Source of the DNA: an uncultured Gemmatimonadota bacterium
GTDB taxonomy: Bacteria > Gemmatimonadota > CAZMKB01 > CAZNLH01
Assembly (NCBI GenBank): GCA_964577985.1
Contig: CAZOAR010000002.1
Span: 13,130 to 77,129 of the forward strand
DNA length: 64,000 nucleotides
Direction of reading: 5' to 3'
The notes beneath the pieces are model-generated. The model was given only the letters and a program-made list of their open reading frames with translations. It searched no databases and was not told where the DNA came from. The position numbers and the translations under genes are program-made. Numbering within the stretch: the first letter of the stretch is position 1; every line of letters starts with the position of its first letter. Of the stretch, positions 21,470 to 62,928 are shown piece by piece.

Positions 21470-22516
21470 CTACTCGCCCATCCTGATCTTTCTCCGGTAT
21501 TTCGCGTATGTGCCGTAATCGAGATGTACTTTGTTCCTGTCGAGGTAGTCGGTTGTCCCGGGCGCCTTGTCCCGTACCTCCCTGATCCGGTCGGTCACGC
21601 TGTAGATGAACCCGTCACTGCCCGCTCCGGAACCGTAGGAGACCATCAGTATCGATTGACCCGGCTCTGCGACATCGAGAACCGCGGTCAACCCGATAGG
21701 CGACGCTGCCGAGTACGTGTTCCCCAGCCTCGGACAGAGAAGGCCCGTCTCTATCTGCTTCATCGTAAATCCAAGCTTTTTTCCAACCCTCACGGGGAAT
21801 TTTCCGTTCGGCTGATGGAATACGACATGATCGAAATCCTCCGGACCTTTCCCGGCCATCTCCATGATCGCTGTGGCCGCGCCCGTCACATGCTTGAAAT
21901 ATGCGGGCTCGCCCGTGTAACGCCCGGCGTGTCTCGGATAGTGCATATGTTCCCTGCGCCAGAAATCGGGCGTGTCGGTCATGTATGAATAGGTGTGCTC
22001 CACTTCCGCCACTGTCCCATCGGTCCCGAATATGAACGCCGCGGCACCCGCCGACGCGGAATACTCTAATGCGTCACCCGGCGCGCCCTGGGATGTGTCG
22101 GCCCCTATGGCGAGCGCGTATTCCATCTTCCCCGCCTCCACATGGCTCAGCGCCACGAACATCCCTTCACTCCCGGCCTTGCAGGCGAACTCAAAGTCCG
22201 CGCAGTGGACGTCCGGGGTGGCACCGATCGCCTCGGCGACAACCGTACCGCTCGGTTTCACCGCGTAAGGATGAGATTCCGAACCGATGTACACGGCCCC
22301 TATCCGACGGGGATCAACTTCCGCTCTCTTCAGCGCGTTCCTGGCCGCCTCCACCGACATGGTAATAACATCCTGGTCGGGCGCGGGGACGGACTTCTCC
22401 TCCAGCATCAGGCCCTTCTTGTAACTGGGGGCATCAGCGCCCCAGACCTTTGCGATTTCCTCCACCCTTATCCTGTATCTGGGTGCGTATGCTCCATATC
22501 CAACGATTCCAGCCAC
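21470..22516 (-). CDS. Hydroxymethylglutaryl-CoA synthase, archaeal type
   Basis: 348 aa. GTG start with an AGGAGG RBS. MAGIVGYGAYAPRYRIRVEEIAKVWG…GSESHPYAVKP…DFEFACKAGS matches archaeal-type HMGCS from start to end. Confidence 0.85.
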   Translation of the reverse strand: MAGIVGYGAYAPRYRIRVEEIAKVWGADAPSYKKGLMLEEKSVPAPDQDVITMSVEAARNALKRAEVDPRRIGAVYIGSESHPYAVKPSGTVVAEAIGATPDVHCADFEFACKAGSEGMFVALSHVEAGKMEYALAIGADTSQGAPGDALEYSASAGAAAFIFGTDGTVAEVEHTYSYMTDTPDFWRREHMHYPRHAGRYTGEPAYFKHVTGAATAIMEMAGKGPEDFDHVVFHQPNGKFPVRVGKKLGFTMKQIETGLLCPRLGNTYSAASPIGLTAVLDVAEPGQSILMVSYGSGAGSDGFIYSVTDRIREVRDKAPGTTDYLDRNKVHLDYGTYAKYRRKIRMGE

Positions 22517-54488: not shown

Positions 54489-54857
54489 TTATGTTTTATC
54501 TTTATGCCGTTCCCGACTGCCATGTGTTTCGTGATAATAAGCGCCCTGCTCCTTAGTGTCAAGCTTTAATGAGGAGTGTCCCTGGAGGGATTTCCTGAGG
54601 CGGTTTTCATCTACTCTATATTTAAACGCCTTGCGGCCACAGACGAAGATAACCGGTATCTCTTCGCCATAGAGCCTGGTGAGCTCATCATCTTTCGAGA
54701 TGTCTATTTCACGATAAACGAACGGGATCTCCTGCTTCACCCTCATTATCACGTCCTTCGCCTTTCGGCAGAGAGAGCATCCCGACCGCGTATAGAGTGA
54801 AACGGTCAGGTTACTCGATTCTGATATATTTGCACCTTCCATCCTATTCAGCATCAT
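54489..54857 (-). CDS. Glutaredoxin-like protein (thioredoxin fold, CxxC = CSLC)
   Basis: …VSLYTRSGCSLCRKAKDV…IPVIFVCGR… resembles NrdH/glutaredoxin. Start Met uncertain (several Mets between 54842 and 54899). Sits immediately downstream of selenoprotein candidate A. Confidence 0.6.
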   Translation of the reverse strand: MMLNRMEGANISESSNLTVSLYTRSGCSLCRKAKDVIMRVKQEIPFVYREIDISKDDELTRLYGEEIPVIFVCGRKAFKYRVDENRLRKSLQGHSSLKLDTKEQGAYYHETHGSRERHKDKT

Positions 54858-55806
54858 AGATTCTCCGGAGCTGCGCCTTCCTCCTCGTCCTGTACTCATC
54901 CAGAAAAGGCAGCATCCCTGACTGGTCTTCGATGTCGGACCCGAGGGGAATCAATTCCGCGCTTTTCTGTTCAACGGGGCTATCGCCGAGCCCGAGATCC
55001 AGCCGCCCGAGAGAACGTCCGTGAGTCTCACCCTTCAGGACCACTGTTCCACCAACCAATATGGGATCGTAGATCCTTGTGCCACCGTGCCCCAGTATTA
55101 CCACGTCGAGGTTCTGGTACTTCTCTGCCAGTTTCCTGCCCTCATCGAAACCGACGTGGAACAAACCCACGAGGAGATCGACTTTATCCTTCAATTCTAT
55201 CGTGAGTTTCTCGACACGTTCATCCGGATCCGCCATAACCCATCCAGGGGCCATCATACCATCGCCGGTCGGCAGCGTGACACCTATCAACCCGATCTTC
55301 AACCCGCCCCTGTCGACAATCAGAGATGGTATGCCGACTTCCTCGCCCTCGAACTCGAGATTACACGAAAGAAGCGGTAGACGTCCAGAAAGACTCTCAA
55401 TGAATTGATTCCCCATGGCTAGATCTCGCTCGCCGGGGACAACGGCGTCATACTTCATCGCCGCCATAGCCTTTGCCAGTATATCCGATTTGAGCTCACC
55501 CAGCGGGTCCGGCGCCAGCGAGAAGTCGCCCACATTCACGAGCAGCACAGCCTGGCCCTCTTGTCTTATCTTATCGATCATCGTCGCCCGCCGGGCGATT
55601 CCACCCTGAAGGGGCTTCTTTCACCCGCACGGCTCCAGGTATCCCAGCTCGTCCGAACTGTACAGGATCGTCACCAGAGAAGATTCCTCGGCGGGAGAGG
55701 AGACCGGGAAAAGCAGCGCCGCCACACATGAAAGAAGGAGAAACAGTCCGGCCCCCGGAGATGAAATAACTCGGCCAATACGGGTCCCTGACAAGGAACT
55801 CATCAT
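54844..55806 (-). CDS. Candidate selenoprotein A: secreted degenerate metallophosphoesterase-like protein with in-frame TGA (Sec) at 55621..55623, motif …YLEPCG-U-KKP…
   Basis: ORF-track entries 55621..55806 and 54844..55581 are in the same frame (55623-55581=42) and separated only by TGA plus 13 sense codons (KKPLQGGIARRAT). Signal peptide. ILYSSDELG replaces the DxH motif-I, NVGDFS is motif II, GERDL replaces GNHE, and GHGG is retained. The ATG overlaps the TGA of the DtxR-like gene. Confidence 0.6.
55584..55598 (-). promoter_or_regulatory. Putative SECIS-like hairpin about 25 nt downstream of the UGA of selenoprotein A
   Basis: mRNA UCGCCCGGCGGGCGA (5-6 bp GC stem). The same nucleotide sequence occurs at the equivalent position in paralog B. 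Confidence 0.35.
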
Positions 55807-56666
55807 GTCACCTCCCTCACAAAAATCTCTCTGCCGACGGCCTTATCGAGCGCGACCGTTGTCTCGTCCACCTCCACCACGTAGCTGGGATGGCGCTGTT
55901 TGAGTCTGAGGACGCCGCCCGGCGCCAGTCCAAGCGTGCCGAGGCGCTCGAGCCTGCTCTGATAGCTTGGTGTTATGAACACAACACGTGCTTTCTTTCC
56001 CACTTCGAGGTTCGTCAATGGCGTCACAAGGGGTTCGATATGCGTTCCGAAGATCCTGCAGCAGTCGCCCCGGGGGATAGCCTTCCCGTGGGGACAGGTC
56101 GGGGGATGCCCGAGGAATGTGCACACCCTGTCGGTCACCTGAGGGCTCAATATGTGTTCGAACTTGCAGGCACTGCTGTGGGCCTCAGGATCGCCTACGT
56201 CGAGAATCTCCATGAGCAGTCGTTCTGCGAGCCGGTGACTGCGCACGATCTTTCTGGCGATCGCTCTCCCACGTTCCTTCATGAATATTTCGCCATCCCC
56301 GAGCGAGATCAGACCTCTATCCTCTATCGCTCTCAGCTGATCTGACAGCTGCCCCTTCCCCTTGAAATCCACTGAGTCATGCGGCGATTCATCGCTTTCC
56401 GCCTCTCGTGTCCCAGATTCGCCTTCGAGCATCGACACCTTGAGGCCGCCTTCTCCTCCACCCTCTTCCCACAACCACAACCTTTGGAGCAATTCTTCTA
56501 TGCGTTCTTCCAACTCTACTCTCCCTGGCTTTCTTCCCTGTGACTGAACCCGCGCTTGATGACAGCGCATATCCTGCCGATAATATCTACAATCTTCGAT
56601 TGGCCGACGACCTGATACCCGCAGCGGGGACAGCAGGCAAGATGGTTCCCGCTCGACAGGGGGCAA
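55803..56666 (-). CDS. DtxR/IdeR-family metal-dependent regulator with C-terminal FeoA/SH3-like domain
   Basis: …SHRLAERLLMEIL…, …CTFLGHPPTCPHGKAIP… (DtxR metal site). C-terminal …VGKKARVVFITP…LGLAPGGVLRLKQRHPSYVVEVDETTVAL (FeoA-like). N-terminal extension is atypical and the start is uncertain. Confidence 0.7.
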   Translation of the reverse strand: MPPVEREPSCLLSPLRVSGRRPIEDCRYYRQDMRCHQARVQSQGRKPGRVELEERIEELLQRLWLWEEGGGEGGLKVSMLEGESGTREAESDESPHDSVDFKGKGQLSDQLRAIEDRGLISLGDGEIFMKERGRAIARKIVRSHRLAERLLMEILDVGDPEAHSSACKFEHILSPQVTDRVCTFLGHPPTCPHGKAIPRGDCCRIFGTHIEPLVTPLTNLEVGKKARVVFITPSYQSRLERLGTLGLAPGGVLRLKQRHPSYVVEVDETTVALDKAVGREIFVREVT

Positions 56667-56718
56667 GTGGAGCAGCTCGAATTATCCCGATCGAATTCAA
56701 GACCACACAACTGACACG

Positions 56719-58680
56719 TCAGAATGTCCAACCCATGCCTCTCAGGATCGTGTTCAACACACCGCCCGTCAGGATCGCAAACGGGAAAATGAAGGCCATC
56801 ATCGCCAGGGCCATGCCCAGTCCCCTCTCCTTGACGATTATAAAGAAATTGGCGATGCATGGAACGAAAAGAGTTATCGTGACCAGGCTCACGACTATCT
56901 GAACACCGTCGAGCTTGCCGTCACGCGCCAGCATGAAGAGCCCGGCGGCGCCATAATCTCTCCGCAGAAATCCCACGACAAAAGACTCGGTCGTTTCACC
57001 CGGCAGACCCAGAAAACCCTCGACAACGGGTCGTGCCGCGTGTTCAACGGCCGACAGGAGTCCGATCCTGCTGGAGAGGAAAAGAACCAGCGTGCCAAGG
57101 ACAAAGAGGGGAACCGCCTCCTTGAGATACCACTCTATCCGGGCGACACTCTTTGTCACTATGTTCTTCATCTGCGGAAGCCTCACCGGGGGTATCTCGA
57201 GTATGAAATCCGCCCGTTCTCCGGGAATCACAAGTGATGCCAGAAAACCCACGAGGAGCAACATGCACGAGATTACTCCCACCCAGAGCAGAGTCGCCCC
57301 GAACGACAGGCCCCCCAGCATTCCCAGAATGACCCCGAGCTGTGCGGAGCACGGAACGCCGAGGGCGAGAAGCAGTGTCGTAACGATCTTCTCTTTCCTG
57401 CTGCCCAGGATACGTGTCGTCAGTGTGGCCATGGTGTCACATCCGAGTCCAAGGATCATGGGCAGGACGGCTTTTCCGTTGAGACCTATCATTCTGAATA
57501 CCCTGTCCACCATGACGGCGAGCCTGGGCAGGTAGCCCGAATCTTCCAGTATACCGAAGGCGACAAAGAAAGTGCCTACAACAGGAAGTACGATCGCCAC
57601 TGAATAGGTAAGCGCCATAGTGAAGACACCATATTCCCCGACGAGGAGGTCCCGTACAAGCTGAAACGGGATGATGGCGTCGACCAACCTTGTGACAGCC
57701 GGATTTACATACTCACCAAAGACCACACCTTCCATGAAGTTCACCATATCACCGGCTCCCAGCACACCCACAAACTCATACAGAAGATAGAGTACGACAA
57801 GCAGGAACGGAATGCCCCACAGGGGATGCATGGCCAATTCCCCGATATCCTTCACGACGGATGACTTCCGGGCGGCTTTTTTCGAAAGCACCTTGTCCAG
57901 GATCCTGTCGATCGCCCACAACCGCTGCTGATTGATGATCGACCCGATGGGCTGCGCGTATTTAGCCCTCATCACCCTGCACACTTTCTCGATGCCATCG
58001 ATCGCATCGGTGTTTATCCTGTCTCTGAGATACGGTATTATCGTCGTGTCGCCGGAAAGCAACATCAGCGCCAGGGAACGCCGAGCTATCGCGCAGTGGG
58101 GCAGCAATTCCTCGAGTCCGGCTATTGCCTCCTCGACTTCCTCCGAATATACGACAGGTCTTCCTGTTTTCTTCTCTTTCGTGATACCCTTCAGGAGGGA
58201 GTCGATCCCCTCTCTTCGGGTCGCCACTGTAGAAACAACGTCTATACCAAGCAATTCCGAGAGCCTGTCCGTGTCAACCTTTATGCCTCGGTTACTGGCC
58301 TCGTCGCCCATATTCAGATCGAGGAGGAAGGGGAGTCCCATCTCGATCAACTGTATGGAGATGCTGAGAGCACGCCTGAGGTTTTTCGCATCCGCGACCT
58401 GTACGATGCTGTCCGCCGGGTGCTCAAGAAGGACATTCCGCGTCACCTCTTCATCCTCCGATGTGGGCACCAGACTGTTAATCCCGGGCGTGTCAAAGAC
58501 GGTATAGCTCTCTCCGCCGAGTACCACCTTCCCTACACTCATCTCAACGGTGGTCCCCGGATAATTGGACACGGTCACATATCGTCCGGTCATGACATTG
58601 AAGAGCACGCTCTTTCCCACGTTGGGGTTGCCCACCAGGATCAGCTTCTTCTCTATTCTTTCAGTGCGGGTTCTGGTCAT
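56719..58680 (-). CDS. feoB: Ferrous iron transporter B
   Basis: G-domain LILVGNPNVGKSVLFN…DTPG. Long polytopic C-terminal permease. Confidence 0.9.
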   Translation of the reverse strand: MTRTRTERIEKKLILVGNPNVGKSVLFNVMTGRYVTVSNYPGTTVEMSVGKVVLGGESYTVFDTPGINSLVPTSEDEEVTRNVLLEHPADSIVQVADAKNLRRALSISIQLIEMGLPFLLDLNMGDEASNRGIKVDTDRLSELLGIDVVSTVATRREGIDSLLKGITKEKKTGRPVVYSEEVEEAIAGLEELLPHCAIARRSLALMLLSGDTTIIPYLRDRINTDAIDGIEKVCRVMRAKYAQPIGSIINQQRLWAIDRILDKVLSKKAARKSSVVKDIGELAMHPLWGIPFLLVVLYLLYEFVGVLGAGDMVNFMEGVVFGEYVNPAVTRLVDAIIPFQLVRDLLVGEYGVFTMALTYSVAIVLPVVGTFFVAFGILEDSGYLPRLAVMVDRVFRMIGLNGKAVLPMILGLGCDTMATLTTRILGSRKEKIVTTLLLALGVPCSAQLGVILGMLGGLSFGATLLWVGVISCMLLLVGFLASLVIPGERADFILEIPPVRLPQMKNIVTKSVARIEWYLKEAVPLFVLGTLVLFLSSRIGLLSAVEHAARPVVEGFLGLPGETTESFVVGFLRRDYGAAGLFMLARDGKLDGVQIVVSLVTITLFVPCIANFFIIVKERGLGMALAMMAFIFPFAILTGGVLNTILRGMGWTF

Positions 58681-58711
58681 AGATCACCGGTCAACGCCGT
58701 ATCGCTCCTCA

Positions 58712-59179
58712 TCAGTCAATCTCCGTCGAACATTTCCTGCACAGCCCGTAGATCACCAGCTCATGATCCCGGGCGTCAAAGCTGAGCTTGTCAATTACGA
58801 CCTCCTGCAGCCGTTCTATATCAGGCACCTCGAACTCGATCACCTCGCCGCAATCCTCGCAAATCAAGTGATCGTGATGGCGTTTGTCAATGATCCTTTC
58901 GAATTTCCGGAACCCGACGCCGAAATCGTGCTCCCGGACCACCCCACTCGAGACCATCAGCGCGAGCGTCCTGTAAATGGTCGCCAGACCTATCCTGAGG
59001 TTCTTCTTCTTCAGGACGAGCGCGAGTTCCTCCACGGAGAAATGGCCATCCATCGACATGACCGTCGTCGCGATTTGCTCCCGCTGAAGCGTGAGAAACA
59101 GCTTCTCCTCTCTGAGGTACTCCCTGAATCTGCCTGTAGTATCCATGATCTGCTCTTCGAAATTGAGAATGATTATCAA
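58712..59179 (-). CDS. fur: Fur-family transcriptional regulator
   Basis: …LRRTLQREQIATTVMS… HTH. HHDHLICEDCGEVIEFE metal site plus C-terminal CRKC. The true start is likely the internal ATG at 59146. Confidence 0.85.
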   Translation of the reverse strand: MIIILNFEEQIMDTTGRFREYLREEKLFLTLQREQIATTVMSMDGHFSVEELALVLKKKNLRIGLATIYRTLALMVSSGVVREHDFGVGFRKFERIIDKRHHDHLICEDCGEVIEFEVPDIERLQEVVIDKLSFDARDHELVIYGLCRKCSTEID

Positions 59180-59183
59180 TATA
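59165..59183. promoter_or_regulatory. Fur box in the fur / oxidoreductase divergent promoter region
   Basis: GAGAATGATTATCAATATA matches GATAATGATAATCATTATC at 15 of 19 positions. Confidence 0.5.
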
Positions 59184-59275
59184 AGTTATCGGCGATACGG
59201 TCAGCTGTCAAGGACCATTTGACTCGACTGATGAGAATGGCTAATATAACACAAACGCAAGAGGAGGAACCAGAG

Positions 59276-60319
59276 ATGCGTGCAGTTACTATCCATGGTC
59301 ATGGCGGGCCCGAAGAACTTCGCCTGGAAGAAGTGGAAAAGCCGACACCCGGCAAAGGAGAGGTGGTGGTGAGACTTGCGGCCGCGGCACTTAATCATCT
59401 CGATATCTGGGTGTTGAAAGGTGTACCGGGCCTCACGCTTTCTTTCCCCCATATCATGGGTTCCGACGGCTCCGGGACGGTGGATCAACCTGGTGAGGCA
59501 GTCGACGGAATCAAAAAGGGAGACAGGGTCCTGATCAATCCCGGCATAAGCTGCGGGGAGTGTGAATTCTGCGGGAAAGGCGAGGAGAGCGAGTGCCGCT
59601 CCTTTCACCTGCTGGGAGAGCATATAGACGGGACATTCGCCGAGTATGTCGCGGTGCCGGAGAAAAACCTCCACGTCGTGCCTGAACATCTCTCTTTCGA
59701 GGAAGCCGCTGGTCTGCCCCTTGTATTTCTCACCGCGTGGCGGATGCTCGTATCAAGGGCGCATCTGGCTGCCGGTGAGGACCTGCTGGTGATAGGCGCA
59801 GGTGGCGGGGTAGCCGGAGCGGCCATCCAGCTCGGGCTGGAGCTGGGAGCCAGGGTGATCGCGACGTCAGGCGATCCGGAAAAGGTGGAGAAAGCGTCGA
59901 AGATGGGCGCACACCACGCGTTCAATCACGGGGAGAAGGATATAGTCAGGGAGGTCAGACAGTTTACGAAAGGGAGGGGCGTAGATGTCTGTGTGGACTC
60001 CGTTGGAGAAGCCACCTGGAGCAAGAGCATCGGCAGCCTTGTCAAGGGAGGAAGGCTGGTGAGCTGTGGGGCAACATCGGGTCCCCTGGGGGAGACCGAC
60101 ATCCGCAGGGTCTTCTGGAACCAGTTGACTATCCTCGGCTCGACGATGGGCAGCCGGTCTGACGTAAGAGAAATGCTTCGCTTCGTGGAGGAGAGAAGCA
60201 TGAAACCCGTCATCGACACCATATTTCCCCTGGAGAATGCCCTCGAGGCCCACGAGCGCATGATCCAGGGAGAACAGTTCGGCAAGCTGGTCCTCAGGAT
60301 AAGCGGGGACAGGTCATGA
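59276..60319 (+). CDS. Zinc-type alcohol dehydrogenase / quinone oxidoreductase (MDR superfamily)
   Basis: AGGAGGA RBS. MRAVTIHGHGGPEELRLEEVEKPTPGKGEVVVRL…, GxGxxG (VIGAGGGVAGAAIQL). Confidence 0.85.
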   Translation: MRAVTIHGHGGPEELRLEEVEKPTPGKGEVVVRLAAAALNHLDIWVLKGVPGLTLSFPHIMGSDGSGTVDQPGEAVDGIKKGDRVLINPGISCGECEFCGKGEESECRSFHLLGEHIDGTFAEYVAVPEKNLHVVPEHLSFEEAAGLPLVFLTAWRMLVSRAHLAAGEDLLVIGAGGGVAGAAIQLGLELGARVIATSGDPEKVEKASKMGAHHAFNHGEKDIVREVRQFTKGRGVDVCVDSVGEATWSKSIGSLVKGGRLVSCGATSGPLGETDIRRVFWNQLTILGSTMGSRSDVREMLRFVEERSMKPVIDTIFPLENALEAHERMIQGEQFGKLVLRISGDRS

Positions 60320-60942
60320 GGTCTGGATTGGCGAGACGCGCGTTCGCATTGTTCCTGATCTCTCTGCCGGTATTTGCCGGCACTCTCATGGCAGGGGAGG
60401 AAGACGCCGAAGGGCCGGGAAAGGAAATCGACACAAAAAAGCAGGAGACCTTCGATGTGGCCGTCATAGAGACCAGGTTCGGGAATATCGCATTCGAATT
60501 CTACCCCGGGGATGCACCAAACCACGTGAAGAACTTCAAGAAACTGGCAGGGGAGGGTTTCTACAACGGCACTACCTTCCACCGGGTCGTTCCCGCTTTC
60601 ATCATCCAGGGTGGAGACCCCCTTTCCAGAGACGATGACAGGAGCAACGACGGCACCGGCAGGCCTGATTATACTATAGATGCCGAGATCAATTCGCGGA
60701 AGCACTTCAAGGGAACGGTCTCGATGTCGAGATTGCAGGATGACAAGAACAGCGCCGGCAGCCAGTTTTTCATATGCCTGGCCAGGCAGCCCAGCCTTGA
60801 CGATGAATATACCATATTCGGAAAAGTGATAGAAGGAATGCAGGTTGTGAGCCGGATCGCCACGGTCGAGACAGACTCTCTCGACAATCCGATAGACCCG
60901 GTCCTGCTGGATAGTGTATATATCGAGACAAGAGAGAAATAG
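60316..60942 (+). CDS. Peptidyl-prolyl cis-trans isomerase, cyclophilin type, secreted
   Basis: Signal peptide. …GFYNGTTFHRVVPAFIIQGGDP…, …SMSRLQDDKNSAGSQFFICL…. Confidence 0.85.
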   Translation: MRSGLARRAFALFLISLPVFAGTLMAGEEDAEGPGKEIDTKKQETFDVAVIETRFGNIAFEFYPGDAPNHVKNFKKLAGEGFYNGTTFHRVVPAFIIQGGDPLSRDDDRSNDGTGRPDYTIDAEINSRKHFKGTVSMSRLQDDKNSAGSQFFICLARQPSLDDEYTIFGKVIEGMQVVSRIATVETDSLDNPIDPVLLDSVYIETREK

Positions 60943-60966
60943 CCGGCCGGACCCGCGCGATCCATG

Positions 60967-61506
60967 TCAGAGCAATTCCTCGATCTTCTCCTCCATAAAC
61001 GCACGCCCCCTGAAGCCTTCGAGCATTTCCCTTACTCTTCCCTCCCTATCAAAGATAAATGTCGTGGGAACTCCCCCTATTCCGCCGAAGAGGTGAGCCG
61101 TCTCCACGCTGCCGATCAGGAGAGGGATCTTGACCTTGTGCCTCTCGATAAAAGAATTGAGATACTTACCCTCCCCCTTGTCGAGAGAGATGGCTACGAC
61201 TTCCAGGCCCTCTTTCTTATGTTCCGACTCGAGCCTGTCGAGCCCCTTCAGTTCGGCTACACTCGCCTCCGCGGATGGCATCCAGAAGAGAATGACAACG
61301 ACTTTTCCCCACAACTCGGATGAGCTGTGGATTCCGGCGCGATGGTCCTTCAGGGAGAACCGCGGAAGATATGCCTCATCAGGCAACCCGTAGGGTTTTT
61401 TCCCTGGATAGAACAGAACGATGGCCGTGACAATCGCGATCAATACCAGCGCGGAGAAGATCAAGATCTTTCGCCGGCTCTTTTCGGACCTTTTCACACA
61501 CATCAC
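60967..61506 (-). CDS. TlpA/ResA-like thioredoxin-fold protein lacking the CxxC active site
   Basis: N-terminal TM anchor. Thioredoxin fold (…GKVVVILFWMPSAEASVAELKGL…VVAISLD…IPTTFIFDREGRV…) in which the canonical WCxPC is replaced by WMPSAEAS. Confidence 0.65.
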   Translation of the reverse strand: MMCVKRSEKSRRKILIFSALVLIAIVTAIVLFYPGKKPYGLPDEAYLPRFSLKDHRAGIHSSSELWGKVVVILFWMPSAEASVAELKGLDRLESEHKKEGLEVVAISLDKGEGKYLNSFIERHKVKIPLLIGSVETAHLFGGIGGVPTTFIFDREGRVREMLEGFRGRAFMEEKIEELL

Positions 61507-61596
61507 CCCTGTGACTGTTCGATCCCTGTTTCCGCCTCCTGATCACGAGGCGGATGTGGAATGAGGCTGATCCTCGGTACTATCATGGAATTGGCG

Positions 61597-62928
61597 TCAG
61601 TGAACGAGATCCTTCATCGCCTCGTAGTCGAAGCCCTCTCCCCTCTCACCCGTGTGACAGGTGATGCATACAAAGACATTGCCCGCCTGTAGAGGCGCGT
61701 TTCCTTTGTCGGCAATATGCCTTGACGCCGGACCATGGCACTGTTCGCACTGGACGTTATTGAAGTTGGGAGTCTCGTCTATTGTCACAAAACCGCCTTT
61801 CTGATAACCGGTCGTGTGACACTTCACGCATTCCGGGTTGTACTCCTCGCCTTCCTTCTTGAGCGTAAGAAAAGCACGGGCGTGGCTCGTAGCATTCCAC
61901 TTCTCGTATATCTCAGCATGACAGGAACGGCACCACGCGGCGCCCATGTAGCCCGCCTTAGAACCCTTCAATTGCCCCCTTCGAGCATCCACATCGCTTT
62001 TTACCATATCCTTGACTCTCGACTGGTAGTCGGAGTAGAGTTCCGCCATCTCTGTGTCATCAGCGACCTTCGCGTCGAGAGGCACGAGTTCTCCGGAGAA
62101 TTCTACGATTTCCTTCGCCTTACGGTCAAAGGTAAGATCTATCCTGCCAAGATACTTACCCTTATCACCGGACTGGGCCATTATGGCTCCACCAACCGAT
62201 ACCGGTGTCTTCACCCTTCGACCCTGATGCCCCACGACAACGACATCTATCCCCTCCTGGCTTTCCGCCAGCGCAACCGACTGCCGATATCCCAGATGGC
62301 TCATCACCACAACAAGGTCGACCTTCTTACGCAATCTCGGAATGGCCTCCGCGAGGGCCTCGAACGGATCCTGGACCGTCCATTCCTCCTGCCCGACCCT
62401 GAGTTGATCAAGGGTGACCCCCACTATGCCGATTTTGATTCCTCCCCGCTTGATTATGAGATCTTTCCTGCCAAACTGCTTCCCGTTGTACTTCATATTC
62501 GTGTCGACGATGGGGATATCGCTCTTCTTCATCGTCTCCATGACAAACTCATCACCAAGCGCCAGTTCTCTCTCACCAAGCACAAGCGCGTCGTAATGCA
62601 TCTTCTTCATCGCCTCGAGGGACACGCTGCTCTTGACCCTTCCCTGATCGGTTGGCTTGCCGGCAAAATCTCCCAGACCCAGTATCAAGATCTCTCTATC
62701 CTCGTCTTCCGCCTCTCGTATCTTCGTCGCCCGCCGGGCGACCCCTCCCATAGGGTGCTTCTTTCAGCCACACGGTTCGAGATACCCGTATTCATCGCCT
62801 GTGTAGAGGATCGTAAGATTAACCAGGTCGCCACCCCTGGATGATGCGGGCAGAAGAGGAATGGACAGGAAGAGCGGCACGATGGAGGTCAGCGCCGCCG
62901 CGATAAGACACTTGTTTCGAAAAGACAT
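61597..62928 (-). CDS. Candidate selenoprotein B: secreted metallophosphoesterase-like domain with in-frame TGA (Sec) at 62764..62766 (…YLEPCG-U-KKH…) fused to a C-terminal tetraheme cytochrome c
   Basis: ORF-track entries 62764..63009 and 61597..62751 share a frame (62763-62751=12) and are separated by TGA plus four sense codons (KKHP). Signal peptide from the internal Met (MSFRNKCLIAAALTSIVPLFLSIPLLPASS). Motifs ILYTGDEYG / GLGDFAG / GERELALG / VVGHQG. C-terminal CRSCH, CVKCH, CEQCH, CITCH. Confidence 0.6.
62726..62742 (-). promoter_or_regulatory. Putative SECIS-like hairpin about 25 nt downstream of the UGA of selenoprotein B
   Basis: mRNA GUCGCCCGGCGGGCGAC (7-bp stem, 3-nt loop). Core GCCCGGCGGGCGAC is identical to the paralog A site. 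Confidence 0.35.

Follow-up and report, generated by a model that had tools for sequence, protein, structure and literature searches.

Probable bacterial SECIS hairpins within the coding sequence of two paralogous UshA-like selenoprotein genes from a Gemmatimonadota bacterium

In the fdhF gene of E. coli the selenocysteine insertion sequence (SECIS) is a hairpin that recruits SelB, with a minihelix around 11 nt past the UGA and a bulged U. The consensus for bacterial SECIS elements in general (bSECISearch; Zhang & Gladyshev 2005, as summarised in PMC13188914) is a stem of 4-16 bp closed by a loop of 3-9 nt; a G is found within the first two loop positions, mostly in the pattern N1-G-[G|U]-N-N2, the distance from UGA to loop is 16-37 nt and the minimum free energy is -7.5 kcal/mol or lower (PMC13188914). 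The UshA-like family is a CxU selenoprotein (U denoting selenocysteine, Sec) belonging to COG0737, which has been listed since the Global Ocean Sampling (GOS) survey of 2008 and in recent reviews (PMC2398784, PMC9312934, PMC13188914). Here we analyse a 64-kb stretch of DNA from an uncultured Gemmatimonadota bacterium (contig CAZOAR010000002.1; the whole of this stretch is referred to as the window), in which two paralogous genes of the minus strand, par1 and par2, each contain an in-frame UGA followed by a GC-rich hairpin. Each of these hairpins is very probably the bacterial SECIS element of its gene.

The products of par1 and par2 are 40% identical in amino-acid sequence and the context of the UGA, L-E-P-C-G-UGA-K-K (LEPCG-U-KK), is the same in both. 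This predicted Sec codon lies at 55621..55623 (minus strand) in par1, where it aligns with the Cys of PCGC homologs, and at 62764..62766 (minus strand) in par2. The hairpin of par1, UCGCCC-GGC-GGGCGA, occupies 15 nt at 55584..55598 (minus strand) and has 6 bp and the loop GGC, within the codons for I-A-R-R-A-T; that of par2, GUCGCCC-GGC-GGGCGAC, occupies 17 nt at 62726..62742 (minus strand) and has 7 bp and the same loop, within V-A-R-R-A-T. These positions agree with those of an initial annotation made from the sequence, which had also placed the stems 25-26 nt after the UGA; counted from the U of the UGA, this equals the spacer of 22 nt measured in par1 and 21 nt in par2, where the stem is one pair longer. 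An identical core had been described as well, and here the identity holds but the length of 14 nt does not: the real identical run is 18 nt, UCGCCCGGCGGGCGACGA, located at 55598..55581 in par1 and 62741..62724 in par2, from 22 nt past the UGA, and it is the longest nucleotide string that the two genes have in common. The adjoining codons do differ, as had been noted, with AUC or GUC before the shared run and AUG or AAG after it.

The same codon is used at only 37% of the identical, degenerate residues between par1 and par2. Under the codon usage of the window, A-R-R-A-T would be written in identical codons with a probability of about 1e-3, which bears out the earlier remark that these codons coincide despite the availability of synonymous alternatives; with I/V-ARRAT taken as given, each gene would have a full 6-bp stem with a probability of 0.07-0.08. 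No further copy of the hairpin 15-mer was found in the 64 kb at up to 2 mismatches (chance expectation 0.34 matches); since it is present at two sites only, the hairpin is not a dispersed repeat, and a repetitive extragenic palindromic (REP) element could be ruled out. The identity of the two hairpins exceeds chance, yet two sequences by themselves are inconclusive.

The comparison was based on 15 distinct UGA-containing homologs (the Sec forms), comprising par1, par2 and 13 sequences recovered from public contigs (L001, L002, L003, L005, L012, L017, L026, L068, L071, L072, L073, L077 and L078); the set spans 23-71% protein identity and a locus GC content of 47-67%. All six base pairs are intact in each of the 15, and on this structure 100% of the 90 pair cells are paired, a value that falls to 37-56% when the 3' partners are slid. 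RNAalifold, applied to the Sec forms from the UGA to +75, predicts precisely the hairpin of par1 and par2 and no other structure. The most informative pair is 27-39 of the alignment (pair 2-14 of the hairpin), which joins the third bases of an I/V/L/F codon and of the second Ala codon. Eight sequences have C-G here, six have G-C and one has U-A, and the pair is broken in none; none of 500 shuffles matched the observed covariation score. The pair is maintained through different codons for one and the same residue, Val being found as GUC with GCG or as GUG with GCC, and Ile as AUC with GCG or as AUU with GCA. In L012 an Ala to Val replacement (GUC) turns a C-G pair into a U.G wobble. On a neighbour-joining tree (no bootstrap) the state of pair 2-14 has undergone at least three independent changes, and on the same tree Sec forms and forms with Cys at the UGA position interleave. 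The initial annotation had proposed covariation in homologs as a check, and it is these compensatory third-position changes, with every pair kept in 15/15, that answer it.

The codons of the Sec forms are restricted accordingly around the stem. The first Ala codon is GCC in all 14 sequences that have Ala, the fifteenth having GUC; the second Arg codon is NGG in all 15; and the first Arg codon is CGG in ten and CGU in five, and never CGC or CGA. Immediately upstream, two Gly codons make use of all four Gly triplets. GCC and NGG are retained even at loci of 47-50% GC (L068 and L077).

The element of par1 and par2 agrees with the published bacterial SECIS consensus in every feature that can be computed. 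A loop of 3 nt caps a stem of 6 bp in par1 and of 7 bp in par2. The loop reads G[G/U]N in 15/15 Sec forms (GGC, GUC, GGA or GUA); extended by the closing pair it becomes C-G-[G/U]-N-G, in conformity with N1-G-[G|U]-N-N2. The distance from UGA to loop is 28 nt in 13 sequences, par1 and par2 included, and L012 and L078 have 25 nt. By itself, the 15-mer has an energy of -8.9 kcal/mol in both par1 and par2, against the threshold of -7.5, and is at or below -8.9 kcal/mol in 13 of the 15 Sec forms (L012, -6.7; L073, -7.2). The hairpin lies within the coding sequence, closely following an in-frame UGA at a position where homologs have Cys, and the compensatory changes lend the structure evolutionary support. 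No defining feature differs from the consensus model; what sets the element apart is that the peptide G-G-x-A-R-R-A-T for the most part dictates both stem and loop G. As in fdhF, the hairpin lies downstream of the UGA within the open reading frame (ORF), has G-U or G-G in its apical loop and would recruit SelB. Unlike that of fdhF, the stem begins 21-22 nt past the UGA and is a perfect GC-rich helix of 6-7 bp with a triloop and without a bulge.

Folding of the isolated RNA gave different results for the two genes. The initial annotation had put forward the fold of the UGA plus 60 nt as a check. In par2 the hairpin is part of the minimum-energy structure (49 nt, z = -2.35), makes up 87% of the ensemble and has a probability of P = 0.98. 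In par1 the minimum-energy structure of the UGA plus 60 nt is a competing helix. That helix is lost once the 12-18 nt that would lie under a UGA-paused ribosome are removed, and the hairpin probability is then 0.9-0.98. As a functional structure the alternative fold of par1 was ruled out, being not conserved and requiring ribosome-covered bases.

These folds bear on the possibility that the hairpin is functional but is not a SelB site, being instead a ribosome-pausing or mRNA-stability structure or a part of some larger SECIS that takes in the spacer helix or the alternative fold of par1. It would gain from the 22-nt spacing to the stem, which exceeds that of the fdhF archetype, from the stronger alternative folds that par1 and L002 show over the full UGA+60 nt, and from the ability of most sequences to form a small helix between CCN and GGN codons in the spacer. 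But the alternative folds are gone after removal of the ribosome-covered bases, the spacer helices do not line up between sequences and L003, L005 and L026 lack them, and RNAalifold finds no second conserved helix. Moreover, the loop is limited to G[G/U]N, which fits the pattern of SelB contacts in the SECIS consensus, and the hairpin is conserved only beside a UGA. We consider such a role quite improbable. The spacer itself (55599..55620 in par1, 62743..62763 in par2; columns 4-25 of alignment A3) frequently contains this small helix, formed by Pro CCN with Gly-Gly GGN codons, and it is strong in L072 and L078 (-14 to -16 kcal/mol). A lower stem or second conserved helix was looked for and rejected, RNAalifold giving none and the CCN/GGN helices differing in register between sequences.

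That the hairpin might be a by-product without any function in the RNA, an x-A-R-R-A-T peptide written in G+C-biased codons producing a palindrome, has to be weighed against what the peptide dictates. The hairpin is encoded in the codons of x-A-R-R-A-T within GGxARRAT, a motif conserved across the 5'-nucleotidase superfamily, vertebrate NT5E included. First and second codon positions fix the pairs U1-A15, G3-C13, C4-G12 and C6-G10 and also the first loop G. As the peptide thus dictates the loop G and all but two of the six pairs, only these two carry independent evidence at the level of the RNA. The positions left free are pair 2-14 (the third position of codon x with that of the second Ala), pair 5-11 (the third position of the first Ala with that of the second Arg) and, in the loop, the second base, which is the third of the first Arg codon. 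The chance of a full stem, at 7-8% per gene, is not small.

Ten controls were compared with the Sec forms: five Cys forms (L004, L079, L081, L082 and L083) and five ordinary 5'-nucleotidases with ARRA or QRRA. The full stem is found in none of the five Cys forms, although these share the ARRA peptide, and their codons vary. In four of them pair 2-14 is lost to a C/C mismatch, and pair 5-11 is mismatched in two; L079 and L082, which are 88% identical in protein sequence, differ at three ARRA third positions. Two of the five ordinary 5'-nucleotidases, L021 and L022 from a single clade, do have the full stem, and L020a has five of the six pairs. L021 (2500-2527) and L022 (1414-1441) contain no PCG motif and no UGA, and carry a perfect 6-bp ARRA hairpin, AUG GCC CGC CGG GCC AC, with the loop GCC and 70% GC; the x-A-R-R-A peptide alone is therefore able to yield the stem.

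Nevertheless the full stem, present in 15/15 Sec forms and in 2/10 controls, separates the two groups with p = 4e-5 by Fisher's test (kinship ignored). Hairpin energies are -6.7 to -9.5 kcal/mol in the Sec forms compared with -0.5 to -5.7 kcal/mol in eight of the ten controls, and C as the second loop base occurs in no Sec form and in four of the ten controls. The free positions named above are precisely those that are constrained in the Sec forms and relaxed in the Cys forms. A by-product would not be expected to show three Watson-Crick types and zero mismatches at a pair made of two third positions, nor GCC and NGG fixed at the two loci of 47-50% GC while the adjoining Gly codons vary, nor codon variation between Cys forms that are so alike in protein. 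We regard an origin as a mere by-product of the peptide as very improbable. ARRAT kept with freely varying codons, the pattern that the initial annotation had named as speaking against a SECIS, was not seen among the UGA forms; the codons are free only in sequences that have Cys or lack the PCG motif.

A covariance model (R1) scored par1 at 55.1 bits and par2 at 59.3 bits. Over 346 kb it recovered only its training sequences and no new SECIS copies, the next scores being those of L004 (28 bits) and of L021 and L022 (about 22 bits). L004 (2498-2542) is a Cys form that is sister on the tree to the Sec form L017 (1428-1472); its hairpin is near-intact, with one C/C mismatch (GCG to GCC), and still reaches its 28 bits against the SECIS model. 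L004 may have changed from Sec to Cys recently, its SECIS now being in decay.

The reading of the hairpins as bacterial SECIS elements in coding sequence, as the initial annotation had suggested, is supported by the pairs conserved in 15/15 Sec forms, the compensatory changes, the fit to the consensus and the membership of a known selenoprotein family. Several observations weigh against it. The signal that is independent at the level of the RNA comes from two pairs, one of which is variable, so that a single pair (27-39) covaries. The controls number only ten and the compared sequences are phylogenetically related; the same stem has arisen by chance in L021 and L022, which are not Sec forms. 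In silico, par1 and L002 favour a competing fold when the whole UGA+60 nt is taken. No Rfam family was matched in the whole window at gathering thresholds, and around par2 at E <= 10 only a chance-level match was obtained, though Rfam gave no bacterial SECIS match whatever. No tRNA was found in the 64-kb window, and none of the 10 suitably sized ORFs tested is a Sec gene (SelB, selA, selD); the Sec machinery of the organism is therefore assumed. Taken with these points, the reading as SECIS elements is still the one that we hold very probable.

On this basis SelB would be predicted to bind, and Sec to be inserted, at the UGA of each gene. A ribosome translating par1 or par2 would arrive at the UGA in LEPCG-UGA-AAG, and the mRNA beyond its footprint would fold into the G+C-rich stem of 6-7 bp with the loop G-G-C; opening of the closing C-G pair would give the pentaloop C-G-G-C-G. 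SelB carrying Sec-tRNA(Sec) could then bind the stem-loop through the exposed loop G and the G/U that follows it, and would deliver Sec to the A site, so that the UGA would be decoded as selenocysteine and not as a stop. The product would be a UshA-like protein of the periplasm that carries the redox motif Cys-Gly-Sec and, in the case of par2, is fused to a tetrahaem cytochrome. Selection on four synonymous third positions would supply two of the pairs, and on a fifth, the third position of the first Arg codon, would keep the second loop base as G or U.

It is hardly credible that the UGAs are true stops or pseudogene lesions, dividing a short N-terminal peptide from a C-terminal protein with a start of its own. 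In favour of this are the customary use of TGA as a stop in the window and the annotation of the database homologs P0001-P0013, which are all given a start downstream of the UGA. But the same in-frame UGA in PCG-U recurs in 15 diverged homologs from various lineages with the frames conserved on both sides, relatives have Cys at the aligned position, the definition of the curated family NF041198 is that of a (seleno)protein, and a downstream start would remove the signal peptide from a haem-c protein.

A global reassignment of UGA was likewise ruled out. TGA terminates 22 of the 40 long ORFs in the window and is the commonest ordinary stop, so the recoding of UGA must be site-specific. In par2 the sole signal peptide is encoded upstream of the UGA and the CxxCH cytochrome domain downstream of it; since the haem domain requires export, read-through would be needed for a functional product. 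Other ORFs split by a UGA and with a Cys close by were looked for throughout the window, and the only frames found were judged non-coding. Homologs that have Cys at the position of the UGA were found, with PCG-C in P0014-P0027, L004 and L079-L083.

The dependence of the hairpin on the peptide raises a more tentative idea, which we think possible but doubtful, namely that the superfamily peptide G-G-x-A-R-R-A-T is a latent SECIS with about four synonymous positions left to be tuned for a change of Cys to Sec. The codons GCN CGN CGN GCN by themselves supply the loop G and four stem pairs, suitably spaced from the active-site Cys. If this idea were true, it could explain the interleaving of Sec and Cys forms on the tree (through repeated conversions) and the near-intact SECIS of L004, and it would provide a concrete case of pre-adaptation for recoding that is driven by a protein motif.

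The best match of both par1 and par2 is the NCBIfam family NF041198, 'UshA_like_PCGU' ('UshA-like (seleno)protein, PCGU'). The gene par2 (about 61597..62928, minus strand) encodes a UshA-like (PCGU) selenoprotein with a C-terminal tetrahaem cytochrome c554-like domain; it scores 297.9 bits against NF041198, above the curated cutoff of 275, and also matches PF00149 and, in its cytochrome domain, which has four CxxCH motifs, PF13435 (E = 3.3e-17). The gene par1 (54844..55806, minus strand) encodes a stand-alone UshA-like (PCGU) selenoprotein of 61 codons, UGA and 258 codons, with an N-terminal signal-like segment and no cytochrome domain. Its score of 141.8 bits falls below the cutoff because only positions 7-270 of the 519 of the profile are present, the C-terminal half being missing; ending as it does after the nucleotidase-like domain, par1 is a relative rather than a full member of NF041198. 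In both proteins the nucleotidase-like domain has the P-C-G-U/C motif close to its N-terminus. In common with the family, par2 has the PCG-U motif, a 5'-nucleotidase-like N-terminal domain (shared by par1) and a C-terminal multihaem cytochrome, whereas par1 lacks the cytochrome half and sits in an apparent operon of Feo iron-transport and glutaredoxin-like genes instead of the usual DsbD/redoxin neighbourhood.

Compared with canonical 5'-nucleotidases (2z1a of T. thermophilus, human CD73 and UshA of E. coli), homology is evident, at E = 2.5e-19 to 2z1a, and the GGxARRA motif is common to all, but the canonical enzymes have neither a Cys-Gly-Sec motif nor an in-frame UGA. The metal-ligand motifs of the metallophosphoesterase are degenerate in par2 with respect to 2z1a (NDTH to GDEY, GNHE to GERE and GGHS to VGHQ), from which it follows that the nucleotidase-like domain of par2 is probably not a phosphoesterase. 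The Cys-Gly-Sec motif of par2 adjoins the former metal site.

Recognition of the SECIS has a practical consequence. The annotated starts of P0001-P0013 are internal Met, Val or Leu codons past the UGA, a systematic mis-annotation in metagenome gene calls, and because they lie 3' of the UGA these entries lose the signal peptide and the PCGU motif. With the SECIS recognised, the signal peptide and the Cys-Gly-Sec motif are restored to genes that are otherwise annotated as truncated. No new mechanism is revealed, since both the selenoprotein family and the SECIS consensus have been described before. Modestly new are the comparative validation, the finding that a peptide motif pre-encodes most of a SECIS, and the existence of par1, a short relative without the cytochrome in what appears to be a Feo/glutaredoxin-like operon. 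As a clean, comparatively validated SECIS overlaid on a strongly conserved peptide, the par1/par2 element pinpoints the synonymous positions that are under constraint from the RNA.

Directly downstream of par2 is a gene for an AhpC/TSA-type redoxin (TlpA-like by Pfam; 60967..61506, minus strand), and a redoxin gene neighbours the Sec-cytochrome gene also in L068, L071, L073, L075 and L077. This conserved redoxin neighbourhood suggests a periplasmic thiol/selenol redox relay. The order of genes 3' of the Sec-cytochrome gene is an optional DsbD_TM/CcdA gene, an AhpC/TSA-type redoxin, a cyclophilin and a Zn-dependent alcohol dehydrogenase; in the window it is represented by the redoxin (61506..60967, minus strand), the cyclophilin (60316..60942, plus strand) and the alcohol dehydrogenase (58565..60319, plus strand), with no DsbD_TM gene, as in L071.

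The apparent operon of par1 extends over 54489..58680 on the minus strand and is made up of FeoB (58680..56719), a fusion of a DtxR-type repressor with FeoA (56666..55803), par1 itself and DUF836. The ATG of par1 overlaps the stop of the DtxR-type repressor/FeoA fusion gene upstream, and the last gene encodes the glutaredoxin-like DUF836 protein (54899..54489, minus strand). Elsewhere in the window, an ORF at 21470..22516 (minus strand) matches the archaeal-type HMG-CoA synthase TIGR00748 with 555 bits; the rest of the window is bacterial-looking, with sigma-54 regulators, PilM, an MsbA-like ABC transporter and GT4 glycosyltransferases.

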